Origin: a virus
Taxonomy: Duplodnaviria; Caudoviricetes
DNA: 64,000 nucleotides
Reading direction: 5' to 3' (one strand)
Virus record (IMG/VR): IMGVR_UViG_3300021255_000083
Coordinates: 1-64,000 of that record
The first letter of the stretch is position 1, and every line of letters starts with the position of its first letter. The position numbers and the translations under genes are program-made. Shown in pieces: positions 3,168 to 53,740 of this stretch. The notes below the pieces were generated by a model that saw nothing but the letters and a program-made list of their open reading frames with translations, did not search any database and had not been told where the DNA came from.

Positions 3168-6007
3168 CTATTTTAAACAATCTATCATATAACCTGTTAA
3201 TATATTTTTATAATTTCTACCTGTACTTCCATTATCATCCACACCTGTTTCTGCTGCTAATATTATTTCTTGTAATGCTGTAAATGATGGTAAGGCTTTT
3301 ATACCATAAGCTAATTGTATATCTCTTCTATCTACTGTTCCGTTATTAGTAAATGTACAATAACTATTAACTCCTGTAATTAAATTAGTAATTGTGTTAT
3401 ATATTGAAGTATATTCATTTCTATATATAATATCTCCCACATTTACACTTACTGTTACATCTTGTCCCATTGGATAACATCTCAATAGTCTTTTAATATA
3501 ATCTTGTACTGTTGCATATTCAGATGCATATATTTTATTACCTTTTACTAAATTTTGTTTATTTACTGCAACTACTGTTATATTTACTGTGTTAGACCAC
3601 TCAGACCAAGATGGACTGTCATCTGAATTATCTCGCATTTCCTCATTTGTAAATATATAATTTGGCATTTGAGCTCTCATTCTTATTTTATATGTACCAG
3701 AAGTTATTACATCTCCATCAGTTCTATTTAACCATATAGCTTTATTCTGTTTATAATCAGATAACAATGAACTAAAACAATCTTCATAAGAATTTGTTGC
3801 TCCTGTCCACACATTTGTATAGTCATAAAGTTTTAATGTATTATCATCTGTAGATATTTCCACTTGAATATTACCATATTGATAATTGTTTTGCTGAGCT
3901 TGTGTATATCCTTCAAAATTAGGGTCTTCAGGCATTGTACAAAGAATTCTAAAATCTTTATTATGCCAAATAGTATTATTTATTGGATATTGTATTACAG
4001 GTGCATTCATTTTATAATAAGGTTTTACTAATTGTATATCATATGATTGTGTACCTAATATTATTTTTGTATCATCTGTAACTGTTCCTGATTGGTTTGG
4101 TTTAAAATAATATGGTGTTACTCTTGCATAATTCATCTTACCTATAAATAACTCTGTTGCTGTATTTAATGTTATACTTACTGGAGATGACAGTGCTGTT
4201 TTACTATAATATTTTGTTTGTTTTATTTGTGTTTTAGTATCATCCATTATTACTACTTTATATCCATTTACTACTCCTGCAGCTCCTGCATAATGGTTAT
4301 ATGTCCATCCCACTGTTATTGTTGGTACTTTATGTATTGCTACTGTTTTTCCTTGTACATTATTTATACCATCTGTTACTGTGTCATCTGCTGGAGATTG
4401 TGTTGGTTGATATTGTACTCTAAACGTTTTAGTACTTATTGCAGATTTATATATCCCTACCATATTTGGATGAGATACATTTAAAGTTGCTGTAGATGTT
4501 ACAAAACTATTACTTCTAACTGTTGCATTAAATACATTTTGAACATTCATTACTGTATCTGTACTTAATGATTTTGCTATCAAACTAAATCCATATCCAA
4601 TTTTGCCAACATTAGATATATCTGTTGTATTAACATATGCTAAGTTAGATGAATTAAATCCAAACCAACTTAATATATTAGTAGAACTTGTCATATTATT
4701 AGAATTAGTTAAAGTTAATGTTGTATTGAAATCACTTTCTAAATTCCATCTTCTACCATTGACATTTAGGTACATAATAGGATTATCTTGCGGACTAAAA
4801 TTATACATATTATCAGTATGATTAGATGATATAGTAAAATTAGATATACTTGGATGCGTATATGTATAAGAATATCTATATGTATAAGCATTTAAACTTG
4901 TGGCTTGTTCATTTATTGCCCAACAAACTGCTGTAAACCAACTTGATTGACTTTTAGGGTCATAGTTAGAAGAATACCATTGATTAGAATAATTATAACA
5001 ATCTAAATTACCTGCAACCTTAATATTTGTTTGAGTTGCACCATCACTTATATTAGCCCAAAGAGCAACTCTACTATTATCATCCCACCTAAATTTTGTA
5101 AGATTTATACAAATTTTACAATTACTTTGACCAACTTCTGAAATGGGTGTTATATTAGTTGTACCATCTGTTTGTAAAGGAGGTACACCTCTTAAACCAA
5201 ATATTTTAGTAGTCGAATTTGAAATACGTGTCTCTGCAGCCTCTCTAATATTGGCATATACATAATATTTTAAATCATTACCCATTTTAGGTGTAAATGG
5301 TCCTATTACACTAGCACCACTTGTTCCAGTACCTATATCTTGCCATCCAGCAGTATTACTAAAATTAGTATACCCAGCTGAAACATTATGGAAGGTACTA
5401 CCATCAGCATTACCTACACTACATAATTCTACTCTAATTTGTTTTGCGTGACTATCACCTGTCCAATCAGCCTTTAAATAACGTGATTGCCCATTCACTG
5501 TCCAATACACATCTTCAGCATATGTACCTTGTCCGTGGAACGTGTATAGTTGGAGTTGTATGAGGACTATATGGTATGTTACTTATACTATGTGAGCCTA
5601 ATTCAGCATTAGTATAATCATCATCAATATCACAATGATTATTTGAAGCAAACCCACAATGCATATAAAGAGTTAATGTCCCACTTGAAAACTCAACTAC
5701 TTTATTATTATATTTATATGTATGTAATTCTTTACCAGCACTCCAAGAACCTAAGTTTTCCACATATCCAGTATTAATTGTATCTTGGGGTGTCTTGACA
5801 AAGCTACCTATACCGAGGACCCCTATAACTTGCTGAGGCATCATAAGAACCAGCATAGCACCCATATAATATCAAAGAGCCATTAACTTTAACATACTTA
5901 TTTGAAGGCATATCACGAGTTATACTTATATTATATGCTACATTAAGTGTAGGACTACTACCGTGCCAAGTTGTATTATCTGAATTTAACCACTGAGTTA
6001 CAGCCAT
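3168..6007 (-). CDS. Large beta-rich virion (tail/baseplate-type) protein, ~945 aa after two +1 shifts at CGG (5813-5815, 5533-5535)
   Basis: ORFs 5804..6007, 5515..5865 and 3168..5510 join as ...YRGP|GIGSFVK... and ...IHVP|GQGTYAEDVYWTV... when the C of each in-frame CGG is skipped; Fn3-like WSEWSN motif near the C-terminus. Confidence 0.65.
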
Positions 6008-43690: not shown

Positions 43691-44359
43691 CTATATTTTA
43701 ATTTCATAATCATACAAATCTCTAAATCTTATGCCTTTATCTGCATCATACATACCAACTTTAACAGCTTTATTTAATTTTTTATCCATTACCATAAATT
43801 TTATACCATCCCACATATGTTGTATAATATCAATGTAATACCTATCATTTGGTTTAAAGGTTTCAGTAAACCCCTCTATATATTTATCTAATGTATCATA
43901 ATCAATATCATCTGTATAATTAGAAAATTTTTTCCTCCTAACTGCATCCTCTGCTCTTCGTATATCGCTTTCAACGGAAGTTAATCTACTTTGTAATTTT
44001 TGTTTTTCCCTTTTTAAATTTTCTATTTCTGTATATATTATAGGATGTGTTTTTCTATAACTACCTCCTTTTTGATATTGTTCAAATTCATTTAGAAAAT
44101 TCTTTTTATCTTCTTCTGTATCAATATGCTTTCCCATACCATTAGCTAACCAAACATATCTTGGTCCAGCTTTATCCTTTAATTCTATATACACTAAACT
44201 AGTTGTAAATCTTTCTGCCCCATATCCATCAACTTGATACTCTATCATACAAGTTTTATTTTCAATATTACCTTTAAAACTCTTAGATATTATATTATAT
44301 TTACTCATATTATCTACCCTCCAATCTAAGTATAAATCTAATTCCATTTCGTATATCAC
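43691..44359 (-). CDS. Hypothetical protein
   Basis: Long ORF; true start probably MSKYN. Confidence 0.55.
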   Translation of the reverse strand: MIYEMELDLYLDWRVDNMSKYNIISKSFKGNIENKTCMIEYQVDGYGAERFTTSLVYIELKDKAGPRYVWLANGMGKHIDTEEDKKNFLNEFEQYQKGGSYRKTHPIIYTEIENLKREKQKLQSRLTSVESDIRRAEDAVRRKKFSNYTDDIDYDTLDKYIEGFTETFKPNDRYYIDIIQHMWDGIKFMVMDKKLNKAVKVGMYDADKGIRFRDLYDYEIKI

Positions 44360-44621
44360 CAGATTTAGTTTTAAACTTTCCGAATGTAGGCACGCATATT
44401 AAATTAACATCTGTAGATGCTAAAAAGTCTCTAGCCAGTACTATAGAGGTTACAGCCTTATTTATGGCTAACGGTCCAATGGCTTGTATTTCTACTAAAG
44501 CATCCTCACCATAGTCTGTATAATCCTTATTAAACTTTTTACTTATAGCTGTAGCTACTTTAGTTGGTATAGAAGTTGATGAAACAAGTACTACATAGTC
44601 TGCATCATTCACTCGCTTCAC
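44310..44621 (-). CDS. spoVS: Stage V sporulation protein S-like
   Basis: VSSTSIPTKVATAI, VEIQAIGPLAINKAV..I..AR.FL, LICVPTF match the SpoVS pattern. Confidence 0.75.
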   Translation of the reverse strand: MKRVNDADYVVLVSSTSIPTKVATAISKKFNKDYTDYGEDALVEIQAIGPLAINKAVTSIVLARDFLASTDVNLICVPTFGKFKTKSGDIRNGIRFILRLEGR

Positions 44622-44782: not shown

Positions 44783-46861
44783 CTATGCCTCCATAAACAT
44801 TGTTATTAACATATCTTTTGTAATACTTTCAATAGATAAATCATAATCAACTTTTTTCTCAACTTTTCTATATAATGTTTCACTACCAGTTTCTGTCTCA
44901 ACTACAACCTCTTCCATTATTTCAGTACAAGGTTTATCAGCTATAATACAACCTGCTTCAGTTAGTAATTCACGCAATGTTAATTGGGCTTTTGGATATT
45001 CTTCACCATAGCTTATAGCCATTTTCTTAACATCTTCTTTAAATCCTGCAATACTTGTATCAGTACTAAAATTATTAAATCTTAATACTACTTTATCCTC
45101 ATTTAATGTAACATATGCTATATCTATATCTGGTATAGTTTTATATTTTGGGTCATAATCAAATTTTGTACTTATTGATGTTATTATATCATTTGGATTT
45201 ATTGTATAATTTTTTGAAACATTTTCATCAGTAGTACTTGCTATAATAAACTCATATGGTACATCGTGATTATTTTGAGTATAGTTCTTTAACTTAATTA
45301 CAAATGTTACCTCTTTTAAACTTGATTTAATTAGTAAACACTCAGTTGCACCATCAGGTAATTGTGCATCCGTCATATCCCCACTATGTACTATATCATC
45401 ACTTCTATAAGATGCATTCCAACCTATATGTTCATTTTCACCTTCTGCGTGTAAATCTAAGTCAACTCTTTGTGTATCTAGGTTTTTCCAATGCACACCT
45501 ATAACCATATTATTATTTCTAGGTATAGTAATTGTTGTGCCAATAGGGAAATTACCCAAAAATTGTTTTTCAGATGTTGGTACTGTATATTCAACATTAT
45601 CTGGTAAATAAATTGTTTTATTTCCTATAATATTATGTACCCTATTATACAAGTGTTCTTCAATTATATTTTTTAAATATAATTGAGCCTTAAATTTATT
45701 ATTTGAACTTTTACCTGCGTGTTCGATATTTTCTAAATATGCCTTACCATTTCTAATTTTATACATCGCAGTATCTACATCATTTAACCTGTATCTTATA
45801 GAGTTTAATATTCTAACCTCTCTAAATACTGTTATAGTATCTAACTTAGACTTTATATCATTAAAAGATATAGTATCTTGTGTTAATCCTGCTGCATCTG
45901 CATTATACTTAAAATATCTATTATAATAAAATTCACCTTTTTCAGAATTCATATTATATATTGATGTAAGCCTATCTAATACATCAAATGGCATATGTTT
46001 ACGATTTGTTCTAGCTGATTTTTTAGCTCTATTAATTATATGATTTAATTCCTTGTCTATCTTTGTTTTAGGGTTATGTGACTTTATTGCTACAAAAAAC
46101 TCATTTTGACTTAAAAATATTTCACCTAGTTTTTTATAGCCATATGGTTTTTGTACATAAGATTTTAATAATCTTAGTGCTTCTTCCTTATCACAATCTG
46201 ATAATACACCCAACAATTCTTTACTTTTTATTAACATTGTACTTCCAGATAATTTATAAACTAAATATCTTAAAAAGTCCATATTATTTTTAGGTACAAT
46301 ACCATATTTATCATATAGAGCTATTTTAACCTCTTTATTATTAATCTCATCAAATTTTTCCTTATCTATATAATCAGATAACATCATTACATCTTCTACA
46401 GTTTGTTTAGATAAAGCTATTCCACTTTTTAGTAATTCTAATAATCTATTACCTAATTCTAACTCTGTTAATTTTACTATAGGTATTAATTTTACATCTT
46501 CATCTAAATCAGGTACTTCAAGTTTTTCGTGTGGTATATATACTAAATCTTGATTATATAAATCCATTGCTTCTAAACCATATGTTGTAAAATAATGTAT
46601 TAATTGCTGTGCAACTAATACTTCTATTGGTGTATCTATTACTGTTTGAAATGATTTATGAAATGTTTGGTTCCATTCTTCAGGTTTTATACCATATAAT
46701 TCTATAGCACTATTTAAAACATCTTCTGATACAGGGTCTTGTATTAATAAACCATTTTCAAGAGCTTTCTGATTTACACTACCTATAAACAAACTCTTGT
46801 CATCTGTATATGCTTTAAATAATCTTAACTCAGCCTTAATTTGTTCTATATTCATAAACAA
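44783..46861 (-). CDS. Putative Ro/TROVE-related protein with C-terminal TerD-like domain (692 aa)
   Basis: Helical N-terminal two-thirds; C-terminal IGVHW...RVDLDLHA...IGWN...HSGDMTDA..P.GATE is TerD-like; downstream of Y-RNA-like cluster. TROVE assignment is inference. Confidence 0.55.
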   Translation of the reverse strand: MFMNIEQIKAELRLFKAYTDDKSLFIGSVNQKALENGLLIQDPVSEDVLNSAIELYGIKPEEWNQTFHKSFQTVIDTPIEVLVAQQLIHYFTTYGLEAMDLYNQDLVYIPHEKLEVPDLDEDVKLIPIVKLTELELGNRLLELLKSGIALSKQTVEDVMMLSDYIDKEKFDEINNKEVKIALYDKYGIVPKNNMDFLRYLVYKLSGSTMLIKSKELLGVLSDCDKEEALRLLKSYVQKPYGYKKLGEIFLSQNEFFVAIKSHNPKTKIDKELNHIINRAKKSARTNRKHMPFDVLDRLTSIYNMNSEKGEFYYNRYFKYNADAAGLTQDTISFNDIKSKLDTITVFREVRILNSIRYRLNDVDTAMYKIRNGKAYLENIEHAGKSSNNKFKAQLYLKNIIEEHLYNRVHNIIGNKTIYLPDNVEYTVPTSEKQFLGNFPIGTTITIPRNNNMVIGVHWKNLDTQRVDLDLHAEGENEHIGWNASYRSDDIVHSGDMTDAQLPDGATECLLIKSSLKEVTFVIKLKNYTQNNHDVPYEFIIASTTDENVSKNYTINPNDIITSISTKFDYDPKYKTIPDIDIAYVTLNEDKVVLRFNNFSTDTSIAGFKEDVKKMAISYGEEYPKAQLTLRELLTEAGCIIADKPCTEIMEEVVVETETGSETLYRKVEKKVDYDLSIESITKDMLITMFMEA

Positions 46862-46885
46862 CTTCCCCCTCTTTTAATTCATTTT

Positions 46886-47056
46886 CTATATCATATTTTC
46901 ATAAATATAATTAAGCTCATTATGTATTTCATCTAACTTTTGTTTTGTTCTATTTAATTTATCATTTAACGCAATTAATCTTACTGTCTGATATGTAAAA
47001 TATGCAGTTAAAATAAATATGATTACTATTATAATACACCAAAATAATTTTTTCAT
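46886..47056 (-). CDS. Small membrane protein
   Basis: MKKLFWCIIIVIIFILTAYF TM segment then coiled coil; TTGACA/TATAAT promoter near 47085-47112. Confidence 0.5.
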   Translation of the reverse strand: MKKLFWCIIIVIIFILTAYFTYQTVRLIALNDKLNRTKQKLDEIHNELNYIYENMI

Positions 47057-47159
47057 AGTTAAACTACTCCAATCTATAATATCTATTATATTATTATAAA
47101 ACACTGTGTCAAAAATGACATCATTTTATCCACTTTTATTACTAGTTATTTAATTAAAT

Positions 47160-47256
47160 AGCAAGTCGAGGAGTAAACTTTTAACTAGCACTACATAAGT
47201 AGTCTAGCTAAATAATGTATTTTTCCCAAAAGACAAGGAACTCCCTTTGACTTGCT
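47160..47256 (-). ncRNA. Y-RNA-like unit 1
   Basis: AGCAAGTC/GACTTGCT terminal stem, GGAG/CTCC helix, conserved GTTCCTT and TAC; internal long hairpin. Confidence 0.65.
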
Positions 47257-47265
47257 TTTATAATT

Positions 47266-47394
47266 AAGTGTCGAGCAGTAACATTTGTGCGGTCGCTCTA
47301 CCAGTTGAGCTACACTATCTTACGATAATGACAGGGCTCGAACCTGTAACAAACTGCTTGGCTTCTATGTTATAAGGAACTGCATTAGACACTT
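47266..47394 (-). ncRNA. Y-RNA-like unit 2, YrlA-type tRNA mimic
   Basis: AAGTGTC/GACACTT stem; T arm ACAGG-TTCGAGC-CCTGT, acceptor stem CATTATC/GATAGTG closed by GTAA, then D arm TA-GCTC-AACTGGTA-GAGC. Confidence 0.8.
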
Positions 47395-47405
47395 TTAAAT
47401 ATTGC

Positions 47406-47484
47406 ATATGGCGAGGTGTAATACTACTTTCAATCCAAATTTGAATGCTCTACTGAGCTAATTAAGGAACACCATTAGCCATAT
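47406..47484 (-). ncRNA. Y-RNA-like unit 3
   Basis: ATATGGC/GCCATAT stem, GGTG/CACC helix, GTTCCTT; inner TAGCTCAGTAGAGCA mini D arm and TTCAA-ATTTGGA-TTGAA anticodon-like arm. Confidence 0.65.
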
Positions 47485-47501
47485 CATTTAATAAGTCATA
47501 T

Positions 47502-47648
47502 TATAGGCGAAGAGTAGTATAGTGCTCTAGCCAACTGAGCTACAAGTCATAGGCTTCCTCGTATGAGGGCTCTTATTGACTTGGTTGGACTTGAACCAAC
47601 GACCTCTCGATTACCAGTCGAAAATTTAAGGAACTCTATTTGCCTATA
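47502..47648 (-). ncRNA. Y-RNA-like unit 4 containing a circularly permuted tRNA-Thr(GGU)-like domain
   Basis: TATAGGC/GCCTATA stem; TCGA-CTGGTAA-TCGA, GTTGG-TTCAAGT-CCAAC, CAAGTCA...TGACTTG, TA-GCTC-AGTTGGCTA-GAGC. Confidence 0.75.
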
Positions 47649-47708
47649 TCCTTCTATTATAATATACCTCAAATTAAATTAATTTTTGAACAAATTTTAG
47701 CAAAAAAA

Positions 47709-48410
47709 TTATTTTTTTGCCTCTGTTACTGTATATGTACCATATTTACCAAAACTTAATTCGGTTCTTCTAGCTAGTACTCCCACTGCTAAACCAGATG
47801 CACACATCATTGCTACTAGATTTTCAGCAGAAATTAGTGCTTCATTATAATCTAAATTTAATTTAGTTTCCCAATCATTAAATTTTGAGTATACAGAAAC
47901 AACCATTGCACCCCTTGCATTTTTATTAATTGTTGGTACACACTCCATATCTACTGACGAATATGTTATAGGTGCTTTATCACCCCTAATTATAAACCAA
48001 CTTCTTGGGTCAACTAAATTTTTAGTTAAACCACTTCTATATGCTCCTTTACATATACTTTCTTTAAACGCCTCACAAGGTATATAAAATAAAGCCTTTC
48101 CTGTTTCTTTTTCTTCGTGCATTAATCTAGCTAACTCACTTTTATAATAATCATCATCATAATTATCATTAAGTGTATCAGGTTTTTTAGTTACATCTAT
48201 CCAGTGCATACTGTCAATAAATCTTCTCATATCAGAAGATTTATACTTAACTTGCGGTAACCCATTATCCTTCCTTCTTAAATTATCAATTACTGCTGTA
48301 GGTCTACACTGCATAGCTAATGGTGCTAGCCCTTTAACTGTAACTTCTAAACTTTTCCATCTGTATGTAAATTGTACCTCTTTTGTATTATCGTCTTTTT
48401 TTGTAGCCAT
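47709..48410 (-). CDS. Cas7/RAMP-like RNA-binding protein (~233 aa), stand-alone
   Basis: RAMP layout: VTVKGLAPLAM strand, YIPCEAFKESICKGA, WETKLNLDY, C-terminal Gly-rich loop SGLAVGVLARR...FGKYGTYTV; start MATKK behind AAGGAGG. Confidence 0.7.
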   Translation of the reverse strand: MATKKDDNTKEVQFTYRWKSLEVTVKGLAPLAMQCRPTAVIDNLRRKDNGLPQVKYKSSDMRRFIDSMHWIDVTKKPDTLNDNYDDDYYKSELARLMHEEKETGKALFYIPCEAFKESICKGAYRSGLTKNLVDPRSWFIIRGDKAPITYSSVDMECVPTINKNARGAMVVSVYSKFNDWETKLNLDYNEALISAENLVAMMCASGLAVGVLARRTELSFGKYGTYTVTEAKK

Positions 48411-48509
48411 AACAACTACCTCCTTATAAAATATTTTTAGATACAATAAATTTTTCACTACTTACTAAATAGACCCACTTACAACATCTATTAGTTTATT
48501 TCATTACTT

Positions 48510-49480
48510 AATTTAATGCTCCATACAATATATTATGATTTAATATACTCTATGGGGCATTAAACCCCTCATTAACAGACTATGCTGTTCTTCAACAAAC
48601 TTTAGAAAACCTCAAACAACAAGATTGCAAATGAATGCATCGCATTGTACGCCTCTTCACTTTAACACCTGCCTCCTACCAAAATACTATATAAGTATTT
48701 TCTAATATGAAATAATTTACACTAGAAGATACTTATTTGTATCTTCTAATAAAAATATAATCAACAAAAAATTATCCCAAAACACTGAAATTTATCTTAA
48801 TGAAAACAAAATCACCCAACAGTAACACCACCACCTACCTAGATATATTAATATCTCTTGCAAAATACCAACTTTTAATATTCTCCAAGAGGTACTAATC
48901 GTACCTCATTTACAGTTTGTCACAACGTTTTACTTTGCTGCACATTAATCCACGTCACAGTAAATTAACACCTACCACCTACCAAAATACCCTATAAGTA
49001 TTTTCTAATATGAAATAATTTATACTAGAAGATACTTAATAGTATCTTCTTCGTTTTTGTAAGTGGTTCACACATTATTATAAAAAGCAGTAACCCACAA
49101 AACTAAACACCAACTTTGATAACTTTAATGTATTGTAACACCTACCACCTACCAAGATATATAAAATATCTTCTACTATAAACCATTTCACATTAGAAGA
49201 TACTTATTTGTATCTTCTTTTAAATATATTAAACACTCAACACGACAGCACTAAAAATCAATCTAAAACACATAACACTACCGCACAATATATAAACACC
49301 ACCACCTACCTAGATATATTAATATCTCACACAATTTACAACTAATTATAAACTCTGTGAGGCACTAATGTACCTCATATTACCTACAATAAATTGAGAC
49401 ATAGAAATATACAAATAAGTAAGTTACAGAATTATACATCAAACTACACTAAAGAAATACAACACCGACCACCCCCACAA
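48510..49480 (-). repeat. Six-unit ncRNA-like array: GGT-rich leader + 5-nt-periodic variable tract + hairpins
   Basis: Leaders GGTAGG(T/A)GG(T/C)(A)GGTGTT at 48664, 48824, 48967, 49137, 49295 and degenerate 49461; period about 143-170 nt; no long ORF. Confidence 0.85.
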
Positions 49481-49487
49481 AGTACAT

Positions 49488-50021
49488 TTAAATCTGTAAC
49501 CTATCTATTGCATCAAATATATCTTTCAACTCAATTATAGATATATACTTCTGTTGCCAGTATAATAAATCTTTATATGCATCTTTTTTAAGTTGTTCAT
49601 ATGTATCTTCATTACTTACAATTCTAAATGTTGAACTATATCCTTTAGCATTTGATAAATGTGTATAAGGTTGAAAGTTTACCTTATATGTTACAGGTTT
49701 GTCGTTATTATCCCTTGCTGTAATTGTAACAACTCTCAAATTATACACAATTTGATGTATTTGTTGTAGCCTGTACTTTTTACCTGCTATAGTATCATTC
49801 CATTCAAGACCCTTATATATTTCAGAACTTTTGTTATTTTCAGCATATAGATATATGTTTTCATCTTGTAAATTACCAAACTCAGCATTAATTTCAACAA
49901 ATTCACTAAACACTTTATTAGCATCTAATTTTATTCTGCTAGCCTTCACAAACTCACACTTAGTTACATTACCCTCACTAAGCTCTTTTATATCTAAATT
50001 ATATAGCATCTTTTCTTCCAT
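49488..50021 (-). CDS. Hypothetical protein directly upstream of the array (candidate RAMP partner)
   Basis: 177 aa; LEWNDTIAGKKYRLQQIHQIV motif; stop codon about 10 nt before the first leader. Confidence 0.6.
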   Translation of the reverse strand: MEEKMLYNLDIKELSEGNVTKCEFVKASRIKLDANKVFSEFVEINAEFGNLQDENIYLYAENNKSSEIYKGLEWNDTIAGKKYRLQQIHQIVYNLRVVTITARDNNDKPVTYKVNFQPYTHLSNAKGYSSTFRIVSNEDTYEQLKKDAYKDLLYWQQKYISIIELKDIFDAIDRLQI

Positions 50022-53654: not shown

Positions 53655-53740
53655 TTTCTATTTCCCTCTAATATAATATACCTCATTTATAATTAAAATT
53701 TTAATATAATCCAAACTGAAAATAAAATAGGTGTTACATT

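Follow-up and report, generated by a model that had tools for sequence, protein, structure and literature searches.

The closest described counterparts of the locus treated here are the bacterial YrlA RNAs, a kind of Y RNA, and their partner protein Ro60, whose gene is flanked by one to several small RNAs and occurs in large phages as well. In each YrlA RNA a conserved stem module is attached to a second, variable one, a mimic of transfer RNA (tRNA) that comprises a T arm, a closed acceptor stem and a D arm, and Ro is bound through the 5'-strand motif GNCGAAN0-1G, which resembles GGUCCGA (Chen et al. 2014, PMC4201824). An arrangement of this kind is found in the window analysed here, which is the stretch of 64,000 nucleotides (nt) at positions 1-64,000 of the complete genome of a gut phage of about 209 kb (208,728 base pairs (bp), with terminal repeats and 28.4% G+C). 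In this window, four tandem RNA units, U1 to U4, precede the gene of a protein of 690 amino acids (aa). With a probability of roughly 60%, the four units and the protein constitute a handle-and-cargo ribonucleoprotein that is organized like Ro60 with its Y RNAs and is not detectably related to them.

The genes around the locus all lie on the minus strand. In the order of transcription, a gene at 47709-48458 is followed by a promoter motif (47673-47656), by the four RNA units (47648-47160), by a TTGACA-16-TATAAT promoter (47112-47085), by a small hydrophobic open reading frame (ORF), by the 690-aa gene (46855-44783) and by small genes; the coordinates of the individual features are collected in Table 1. 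The four units share a frame, here called the handle, which is formed by an outer stem of 7-8 bp ending in C-G, a 5' WAAK loop facing 3' UC, an inner helix of the form NNNGU/ACNNN and an unpaired UCCUU facing YUA. The inner-helix pairs AGAG/CTCT, GGTG/CACC, GCAG/CTGC and GGAG/CTCC, as quoted in the original prediction, are exact, and minimum-free-energy folds recover both helices in all of them, with helix sequences that differ in each copy and pairing that is kept (the fold of U4 has a z-score of -5.96). The 5' strands of the four handles read ...AGAGUUCCUU, ...GGUGUUCCUU, ...GCAGUUCCUU and ...GGAGUUCCUU, and the consensus of the wider family is AuAgGgAGUUCCUaU. When the whole 208.7-kb genome is scanned on both strands with a strict pattern, the four units and one unrelated site are found.

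The handle is a real RNA family, whose structure is established by covariation. The loci fetched for comparison comprise 52 viral loci, 28 from binned genomes and 3 from isolated or complete phages, and a covariance model, R1, was built from 28 minimal units of 54-70 nt, none of which comes from this phage. MAFFT and RNAalifold give 12 pairs for these minimal units, 10 of them with compensatory changes. Read from 5' to 3', the consensus contains an outer stem of 6 bp that C-G closes, then an AWA bulge of 3 nt and an inner helix of 6 bp whose last pairs are G-C and U-A; the 3' strand bulges out one C, and beyond the inner helix UCCUW (5' side) and U(U) (3' side) are unpaired. Invariant throughout are the C that closes the outer stem, the two A residues of the bulge, the stretch UUCCU and, in UAC, the A. 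Searched with R1 on both strands, 667,635 bases yield 149 matches at E≤0.01. In these matches 95.9% of the base-pair cells are paired, compared with 68.3% in shuffles, and double changes occupy 526 cells, compared with 153, and pairing falls to 36-47% when the partner is slid by 1-3 columns. The alignment of the 149 matches is fitted to R1 and so leans toward the structure, a bias of which the MAFFT and RNAalifold result is free.

Within the 64-kb window, R1, although built only from units of other phages, recognizes U4 (33.8 bits, E 1e-5) and U2 (27.8 bits, E 2.7e-4) and finds nothing else below E 0.3. The long units U1 and U3 are missed by the model, so long units were counted by a pattern script instead, and all four units of the window match the pattern of the handle-and-cargo family, which is defined by a covarying handle of two helices with an invariant C-G closure, an A.A bulge, GUUCCU and UA, on the strand of a gene for a homologue of the helical and TerD protein. 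Two known motifs were considered for the handle and rejected: a kink-turn, because it would require sheared G-A pairs where the inner helix has covarying Watson-Crick pairs, and a bulge-helix-bulge (BHB), in which 3-nt bulges on opposite strands flank a 4-bp helix, because in the consensus 3 nt face 1 nt in an internal loop that borders a 6-bp helix on one side.

The linkage of the handle to the protein gene is tight and strand-specific, and it extends across distant phages. All 149 R1 matches are on the strand of the protein gene, and 62 of the 72 sources carry at least one of them; in eight of the ten sources that carry none, the gene is truncated or is preceded by less than 170 nt of sequence. 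The pattern scan of the first 55 loci places 130 units upstream of the gene (at a median of 292 nt), 19 downstream, none inside it and one on the other strand. The pairing of handle and protein persists down to 27-31% protein identity and is found in the cyanophages S-CRM01 and S-CBWM1, in the gut phage Phass-1, and on contigs binned with Clostridia, Bacilli, Erysipelotrichaceae, Desulfobulbaceae, Granulosicoccaceae and Promethearchaeota, bins which may merely hold phage contigs. Clustering of the flanking ORFs gives no other protein family that is common to more than 12 of 79 loci, so that the RNA is the only constant partner of the protein.

The module lies within a same-strand tRNA array at 26 of 55 loci, and in S-CRM01 and S-CBWM1 the protein gene, annotated as hypothetical, stands in the middle of a tRNA cluster. 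Handle RNAs of S-CRM01 (locus L053, at 3537-3627, 3769-3827, 3836-3899 and 5846-5905) flank the gene g174 in that cluster, and two of them are overlapped by g173c, an ORF of 48 aa on the opposite strand (L053:3812-3958), which is probably not a gene. Two sources with adequate flanks, L074 (Lachnospiraceae bacterium ZAX-1, a 333-kb contig) and L081, have no detected handle and are possibly members with no handle or with a divergent one. A gene with a HAD_SAK_2 domain, of the "Swiss Army Knife" RNA-repair type, lies directly downstream of the protein gene in eight loci (for example L006:6303-6851, E 5.7e-20, with seven similar loci), and the present phage has one sub-threshold HAD_SAK_2 match (20.9 bits) at 154734-154952 on the minus strand, in its tRNA region.

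The cargo that the handle encloses mimics tRNA in three of the four units. In U1, the anticodon GGU lies at 47615-47613, and a 27-nt linker containing a small hairpin closes the acceptor stem, which has no CCA. When the cargo of U1 is rotated, it becomes a canonical tRNA of 73 nt that keeps U8, A14, G18G19, U33, GUUC and A58, and ARAGORN, given the tandem-duplicated cargo, reports a tRNA-Thr(ggt) with the junction at about position 26/27 of the tRNA; on the window as encoded, ARAGORN reports no tRNA. U1 and the tRNA-Lys of the phage have identical D arms. The phage has 15 ordinary tRNAs (at 86-157 kb), a Thr(UGU) among its own tRNAs, and CCA is encoded in all 15, unlike in U1. U2 has an anticodon-like arm with a 7-nt loop, AUUUGGA, and lacks a T arm and an acceptor stem, and none of the units shows the canonical cloverleaf order with a free acceptor end and CCA. 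The Rfam model of YrlA (RF02553) aligns to U3 over model positions 24-84 of 114 (36.1 bits, E 8.6e-6, gathering score 69). U1 is matched by the same positions of the YrlA model at 33.6 bits and by the tRNA model at 24.8 bits (gathering score 29), both partial and below threshold, and the locus has two weak tRNA matches in all. The handle itself matches no family of Rfam 15 even at E≤10.

The original prediction had reported four tandem units with a common frame, whose helices vary and yet stay paired, and it had assigned to them a long hairpin, a T arm-closed acceptor-D arm, a D arm with an anticodon-like arm and a permuted tRNA; positions, folds, quoted pairs and cargoes are all as it described them. 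The WAAK/TC internal loop that it proposed is seen in each unit of this phage, and in the family at large it resolves into a 3-nt AWA bulge against a single C, plus one more pair. Its suggestion that one scaffold presents different tRNA parts agrees with the cargo of U1, U2 and U3, and the co-occurrence of the RNA with homologues of the 44783-46855 protein, which it named as a check together with a de novo covariance model, is found with the strand and source counts given above.

Among the relatives, a locus has 1-6 copies of the unit, whose length ranges from 51 to about 150 nt. About one third of the units are bare hairpins of 51-66 nt, and tRNA is frequent in the long units. Inside three distinct units lies an intact tRNA in normal order, with GCCA encoded, whose leader and trailer form the handle. 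In eight distinct permuted cargoes, which include U1 and have Asn, Ile, Thr, Ser and Lys identities, the handle is joined at about 26/27 and the acceptor is closed; NCCA is retained ahead of the linker in some of these cargoes, and in others a tight loop forms the closure. The recurrence of this arrangement in eight units of several identities indicates that U1 is a recurrent design and not an accident, and the junctions observed across the units indicate that a few positions of the tRNA body serve for attachment of the handle.

The closest comparison is offered by a relative (L002) whose protein is 64% identical and whose gene is 73% identical at the DNA level. The promoter stretch 47649-47675 is 96% identical in this relative, U1 is 89% identical, with a compensatory change in the acceptor stem, and U2 is 87% identical, with an identical cargo. 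U3 is 71% identical and its differences in the T stem and the acceptor are compensatory; the hairpin of U4 has diverged and its handle is kept. U1, U2 and the promoter are thus more conserved than the gene, which points to selection on the RNAs.

The gene at 44783-46861 is real, and its start is likely the ATG at 46855. The AlphaFold model of the protein (predicted local distance difference test score, pLDDT, 86.9; predicted template modelling score, pTM, 0.83) has a helical N-domain of about 430 aa, which matches no recognized fold, and a domain which, in the predicted structure, belongs at the fold level to the TerD beta-sandwiches. Fold searches with the full model and with the separately folded N-domain show TerD and generic helical proteins among the matches listed. 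The full-length structural relatives in BFVD are proteins of Campylobacter virus IBB35, of Lactobacillus phage LpeD and of an uncultured siphovirus, and the ESM Atlas gives only viral clusters that are unnamed or labelled TerD. Relatives number 963 at E≤1e-3 in one sequence search, and another gives 1309 representatives at 50% identity (E≤1e-3). Searches of the protein against Pfam, PHROGs, PADLOC, NCBIfam and PDB sequences yield nothing informative apart from one local NCBIfam match, in which residues 424-507 (45335-45586) align to positions 529-622 of the 842-position model of the MXAN_6230/SCO0854 RING-domain family (RING_SCO0854, E 8.2e-9), and which suggests that the beginning of the TerD-like region also occurs in cellular proteins.

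The protein had been labelled Ro/TROVE-TerD-like, and only the second half of this label stands, since the fold searches of the predicted structure recover TerD. Scans for the TROVE domain (PF05731) detect it neither in the protein (hmmscan, E≤0.1) nor in any of 57 relatives (E≤1), and the same Pfam model detects the Ro gene of phage Bxz1, which served as positive control. When the family profile is compared by hhalign with genuine phage Ro proteins (an alignment of 6 sequences), the probability is 1%, and it is 0.4% for the Ro of Bxz1 alone. The structure prediction proposed as a test for a TROVE ring gave TerD and helical matches, and Ro60 is absent among the top matches listed of five fold searches; the C-terminal TerD fold is all-beta and is not a vWA domain with a metal-ion-dependent adhesion site. 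No TROVE gene is found in the complete 208.7-kb genome, nor in S-CRM01, S-CBWM1 or Phass-1. It would still be conceivable that the locus is a true and extremely diverged Ro60/Y RNA system, in which a TROVE ring too diverged to be detected forms the N-domain and TerD replaces vWA. Such a history would explain why a protein gene stands beside several RNAs made of a stem and a tRNA-like module, and why the tRNA-like modules of U3 and U1 align to YrlA, as the proposed search with that model found; the scores lie far below the gathering score and the stem halves stay unaligned. It is nevertheless highly improbable, given the negative protein comparisons and given handles that have no GNCGAA or GGUCCGA Ro-binding motif in their 5' strands, either in the four units or in the family consensus. 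R1 finds no handle in the short flanks of six genuine phage Ro loci; Rfam at its gathering threshold is blank there too, a blank that is uninformative because these flanks span only 0.6-1.5 kb.

The main rival explanation takes the units as production cassettes for working tRNAs that are permuted, split or paired through leader and trailer, in which the handle is a processing or assembly signal, the protein is a processing factor or chaperone, and U1 yields a tRNA-Thr(GGU). This would account for the tRNA invariants that U1 keeps in full, for a GGU anticodon that complements the phage's own Thr(UGU), for the intact tRNA-Ile and tRNA-Met with GCCA in relatives, for the NCCA of some permuted cargoes and for the position of modules in tRNA arrays. 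It is unlikely all the same, because U2, U3, U4 and the hairpins that make up about one third of all units are unable to give a tRNA, the acceptors of U1 and U3 are closed and lack the CCA that all 15 normal tRNAs of the phage encode, the 3 x 1 internal loop of the handle is not a BHB, and neither an RtcB or Rnl2-type ligase in the phage nor a nuclease or ligase fold in the protein is found. The handles could instead be cis-acting leaders by which the protein feedback-regulates its own mRNA in the manner of ribosomal-protein leaders, with incidental cargo. In this phage, however, a predicted sigma-70-type promoter that fits the consensus perfectly stands between the RNA array and the protein operon, and elsewhere the 19 downstream units, other units 1-3 kb away in tRNA arrays, and the 1-6 copies with conserved tRNA-like cargo (in U1 and U2 more conserved than the gene) make a leader improbable, even though most units do lie directly upstream of the gene and on its strand. 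That the array is a repeat with no RNA function, such as a duplicated remnant of tRNA genes or a mobile DNA element, is hardly credible: the units are tandem and their cargo derives from tRNA genes, but covariation keeps the helices, all copies are on one strand, and the handle is kept across phages whose proteins are less than 30% identical.

The handle-and-cargo ribonucleoprotein is preferred over these explanations, since a covarying handle, a cargo with a blocked acceptor and a strand-specific linkage are most simply accounted for by a handle that serves as a protein docking site. We infer that the units are transcribed into stable RNAs, and that these are bound directly by the protein and have a biological role of the following kind. 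The handle would most likely be the docking site of the helical and TerD protein encoded just downstream, with which the RNA would form a particle. The inserts would be tRNA parts with a closed acceptor end and no CCA, which in this phage are a tRNA-Thr(GGU) joined at the hinge between D arm and anticodon arm, a half with D arm and anticodon arm, and a half with T arm, acceptor and D arm. The particle would then present non-chargeable look-alikes of tRNA to factors that recognize tRNA, and may either soak up the tRNA-cutting nucleases of host defence or recruit enzymes of tRNA repair or modification.

Several points weigh against this account. Co-location and co-orientation are no proof that the protein binds the handle, the 690-aa protein has no recognizable RNA-binding domain, and TerD domains are known for binding Ca2+, not RNA. 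The intact tRNAs with encoded CCA that some relatives enclose are possibly plain working tRNA genes, and since many units hold only a short hairpin, the display of tRNA is not the whole function. Neither RtcB, nor an Rnl2-type ligase, nor a TROVE gene is found in this phage, so there is no anchor for a role in repair; a search of the phage for T4 Rnl1 gave no match, but left the controls unmatched as well. A bolder form of the same idea is proposed tentatively, and is possible at best: that a portable docking handle has been grafted onto tRNA at fixed sites (the 26/27 hinge, the variable arm, a position in the anticodon stem and the acceptor ends), which would give protein-tethered and non-chargeable replicas that intercept host immunity which cuts or senses tRNA, such as anticodon nucleases and related systems, or deliver repair enzymes to damaged tRNA. 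The system would then be a second, independent invention of the Ro and Y RNA principle on an unrelated protein fold, spread over phages of Firmicutes, cyanobacteria and other hosts.

The promoter-like motif TTTGAGGTATATTATAAT, a copy of which ends shortly before U1, has 16 matches in the whole genome (with at most 3 mismatches), of which 14 are on the coding strand, and several copies directly precede a ribosome-binding site and a start codon. Examples of minus-strand copies of the recurrent motif, (W)WTGAGGTATATTATAWT, lie at 53670-53687, 47656-47673, 73498-73515, 82520-82537, 84482-84499 and 107047-107064. Judged by its sequence and placement, this motif is probably a phage-specific promoter class, one copy of which would drive the RNA array, and its position ahead of U1 argues for transcription of the array. 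A tie between the handle RNAs and the upstream genes and array at 47709-50021 was considered and dismissed, because the pair of handle and protein recurs without them. The small ORF between the promoter and the protein gene may be no part of the RNA-protein system. Directly downstream of the 690-aa gene lies a SpoVS-like gene (44310-44621; Pfam PF04232, E 2.2e-17), which suggests that the host is a spore-forming Firmicute.

Table 1. Positions of the RNA units, the protein gene and neighbouring features in the window, and of units in relatives (locus numbers with prefix L)
Feature	Position	Strand	Description
Promoter-like motif copy, TTTGAGGTATATTATAAT	47656..47673	-	Ends about 8 nt before U1
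U1	47502..47648	-	147 nt; handle and complete circularly permuted tRNA-Thr(GGU) body
U1 cargo	47523..47622	-	Anticodon arm, variable loop, T arm, acceptor 3' strand, linker, acceptor 5' strand, D arm
U2	47406..47484	-	79 nt; handle, D arm and anticodon-like arm
U3	47266..47394	-	129 nt; handle, long connector stem and module of T arm, GUAA-closed acceptor and D arm
U3 tRNA-like module	47292..47354	-	Aligns to YrlA tRNA-like domain (RF02553)
U4	47160..47256	-	97 nt; handle and long non-tRNA hairpin
Predicted sigma-70-type promoter, TTGACA-16-TATAAT	47085..47112	-	12/12 hexamer positions; consensus match only
Small ORF	46886..47056	-	56 aa from ATG; one hydrophobic helix; outside the set of conserved neighbours
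Partner protein gene	44783..46855	-	690 aa; helical N-domain, TerD-like beta-sandwich, small C-terminal domain
TerD-like domain	45005..45529	-	Residues 443-617; conserved DLDLH and SGDxTD...GATE motifs
Intact-tRNA units in relatives	L004:3079-3230 (Ile), L005:2892-3018 (Ile), L048:2789-2910 (Met)		Encoded GCCA end
Permuted cargoes in relatives	L008:3694-3817, L010:2015-2141, L032:3340-3598, L039:3665-3789		Joined at about 26/27
Further permuted cargoes in relatives	L048:2651-2775, L052:3673-3797, L006:3854-3976		Joined at about 26/27
Ser-type unit in a relative	L004:3623-3750		Handle joined at variable-arm position; ACCA kept before acceptor linker

The system appears undescribed, as it is absent from Rfam 15 and, apart from the one local domain match, from Pfam, PHROGs, PADLOC and NCBIfam, and full-text literature searches returned no description of a handle paired with this protein. 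A survey of jumbo phages mentions only ROT/TROVE proteins and stand-alone TerD (PMC7824862). If the particle is real, it would be a widespread phage ribonucleoprotein, with a protein family of more than 1300 clusters at 50% identity, and would provide a second protein scaffold for the concept of Ro60 and Y RNA. Gaps left unannotated in phage tRNA arrays such as that of cyanophage S-CRM01, and doubtful small ORFs there, would be explained as well, and the particle would offer a concrete, testable link between tRNA mimicry and the conflict of phage and host. The modular handle could possibly be used as a tool to tether RNAs to a protein. Since S-CRM01 and S-CBWM1 have named hosts, direct experiments look possible; Phass-1 also carries the module.

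Among the described systems, the TerD proteins (TerD of Klebsiella, 2KXT, and SCO6318 of Streptomyces, 2QZ7) are stand-alone stress proteins of about 190 aa that belong to ter operons. In the phage protein, the corresponding domain is fused behind a helical domain of 430 aa, is missed by Pfam and is linked to RNA genes instead of ter genes. The permuted and split tRNA genes of Cyanidioschyzon and of archaea resemble the U1 type in that the 3' half precedes the 5' half and the ends of the transcript form a helix. Those genes are processed at a BHB, whereas the terminal helix of the handle is not a BHB and the junction, at 26/27, is not in a loop; the acceptor of the handle units is closed, often with no CCA, no splicing endonuclease or ligase is evident, and most members hold no tRNA. 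The tRNAs of phage T5 reportedly counter the PARIS defence, and phage tRNAs of this kind replace those that host defences cut. With such tRNAs the handle RNAs share that they are phage RNA genes in tRNA clusters with exposed anticodon arms, plausibly used in a conflict over tRNA; those tRNAs are ordinary and chargeable, whereas here the acceptor is blocked and a handle linked to a protein is added.

YrlA and Ro60 remain the nearest parallel. The tRNA-like module of YrlA is present in U3 and U1 and is lacking in U2 and U4, and the handle differs from the Ro-binding stem in sequence and geometry and has no neighbouring TROVE gene. The partner protein carries a TerD-like domain in place of any TROVE or vWA signal. 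The cargo of the handle is also far more varied than that of YrlA, since it extends to bare hairpins, halves with D arm and anticodon arm, whole tRNAs in permuted order that include an anticodon loop, and intact tRNAs, and the handle module occurs in up to six copies per locus and is embedded in tRNA arrays.

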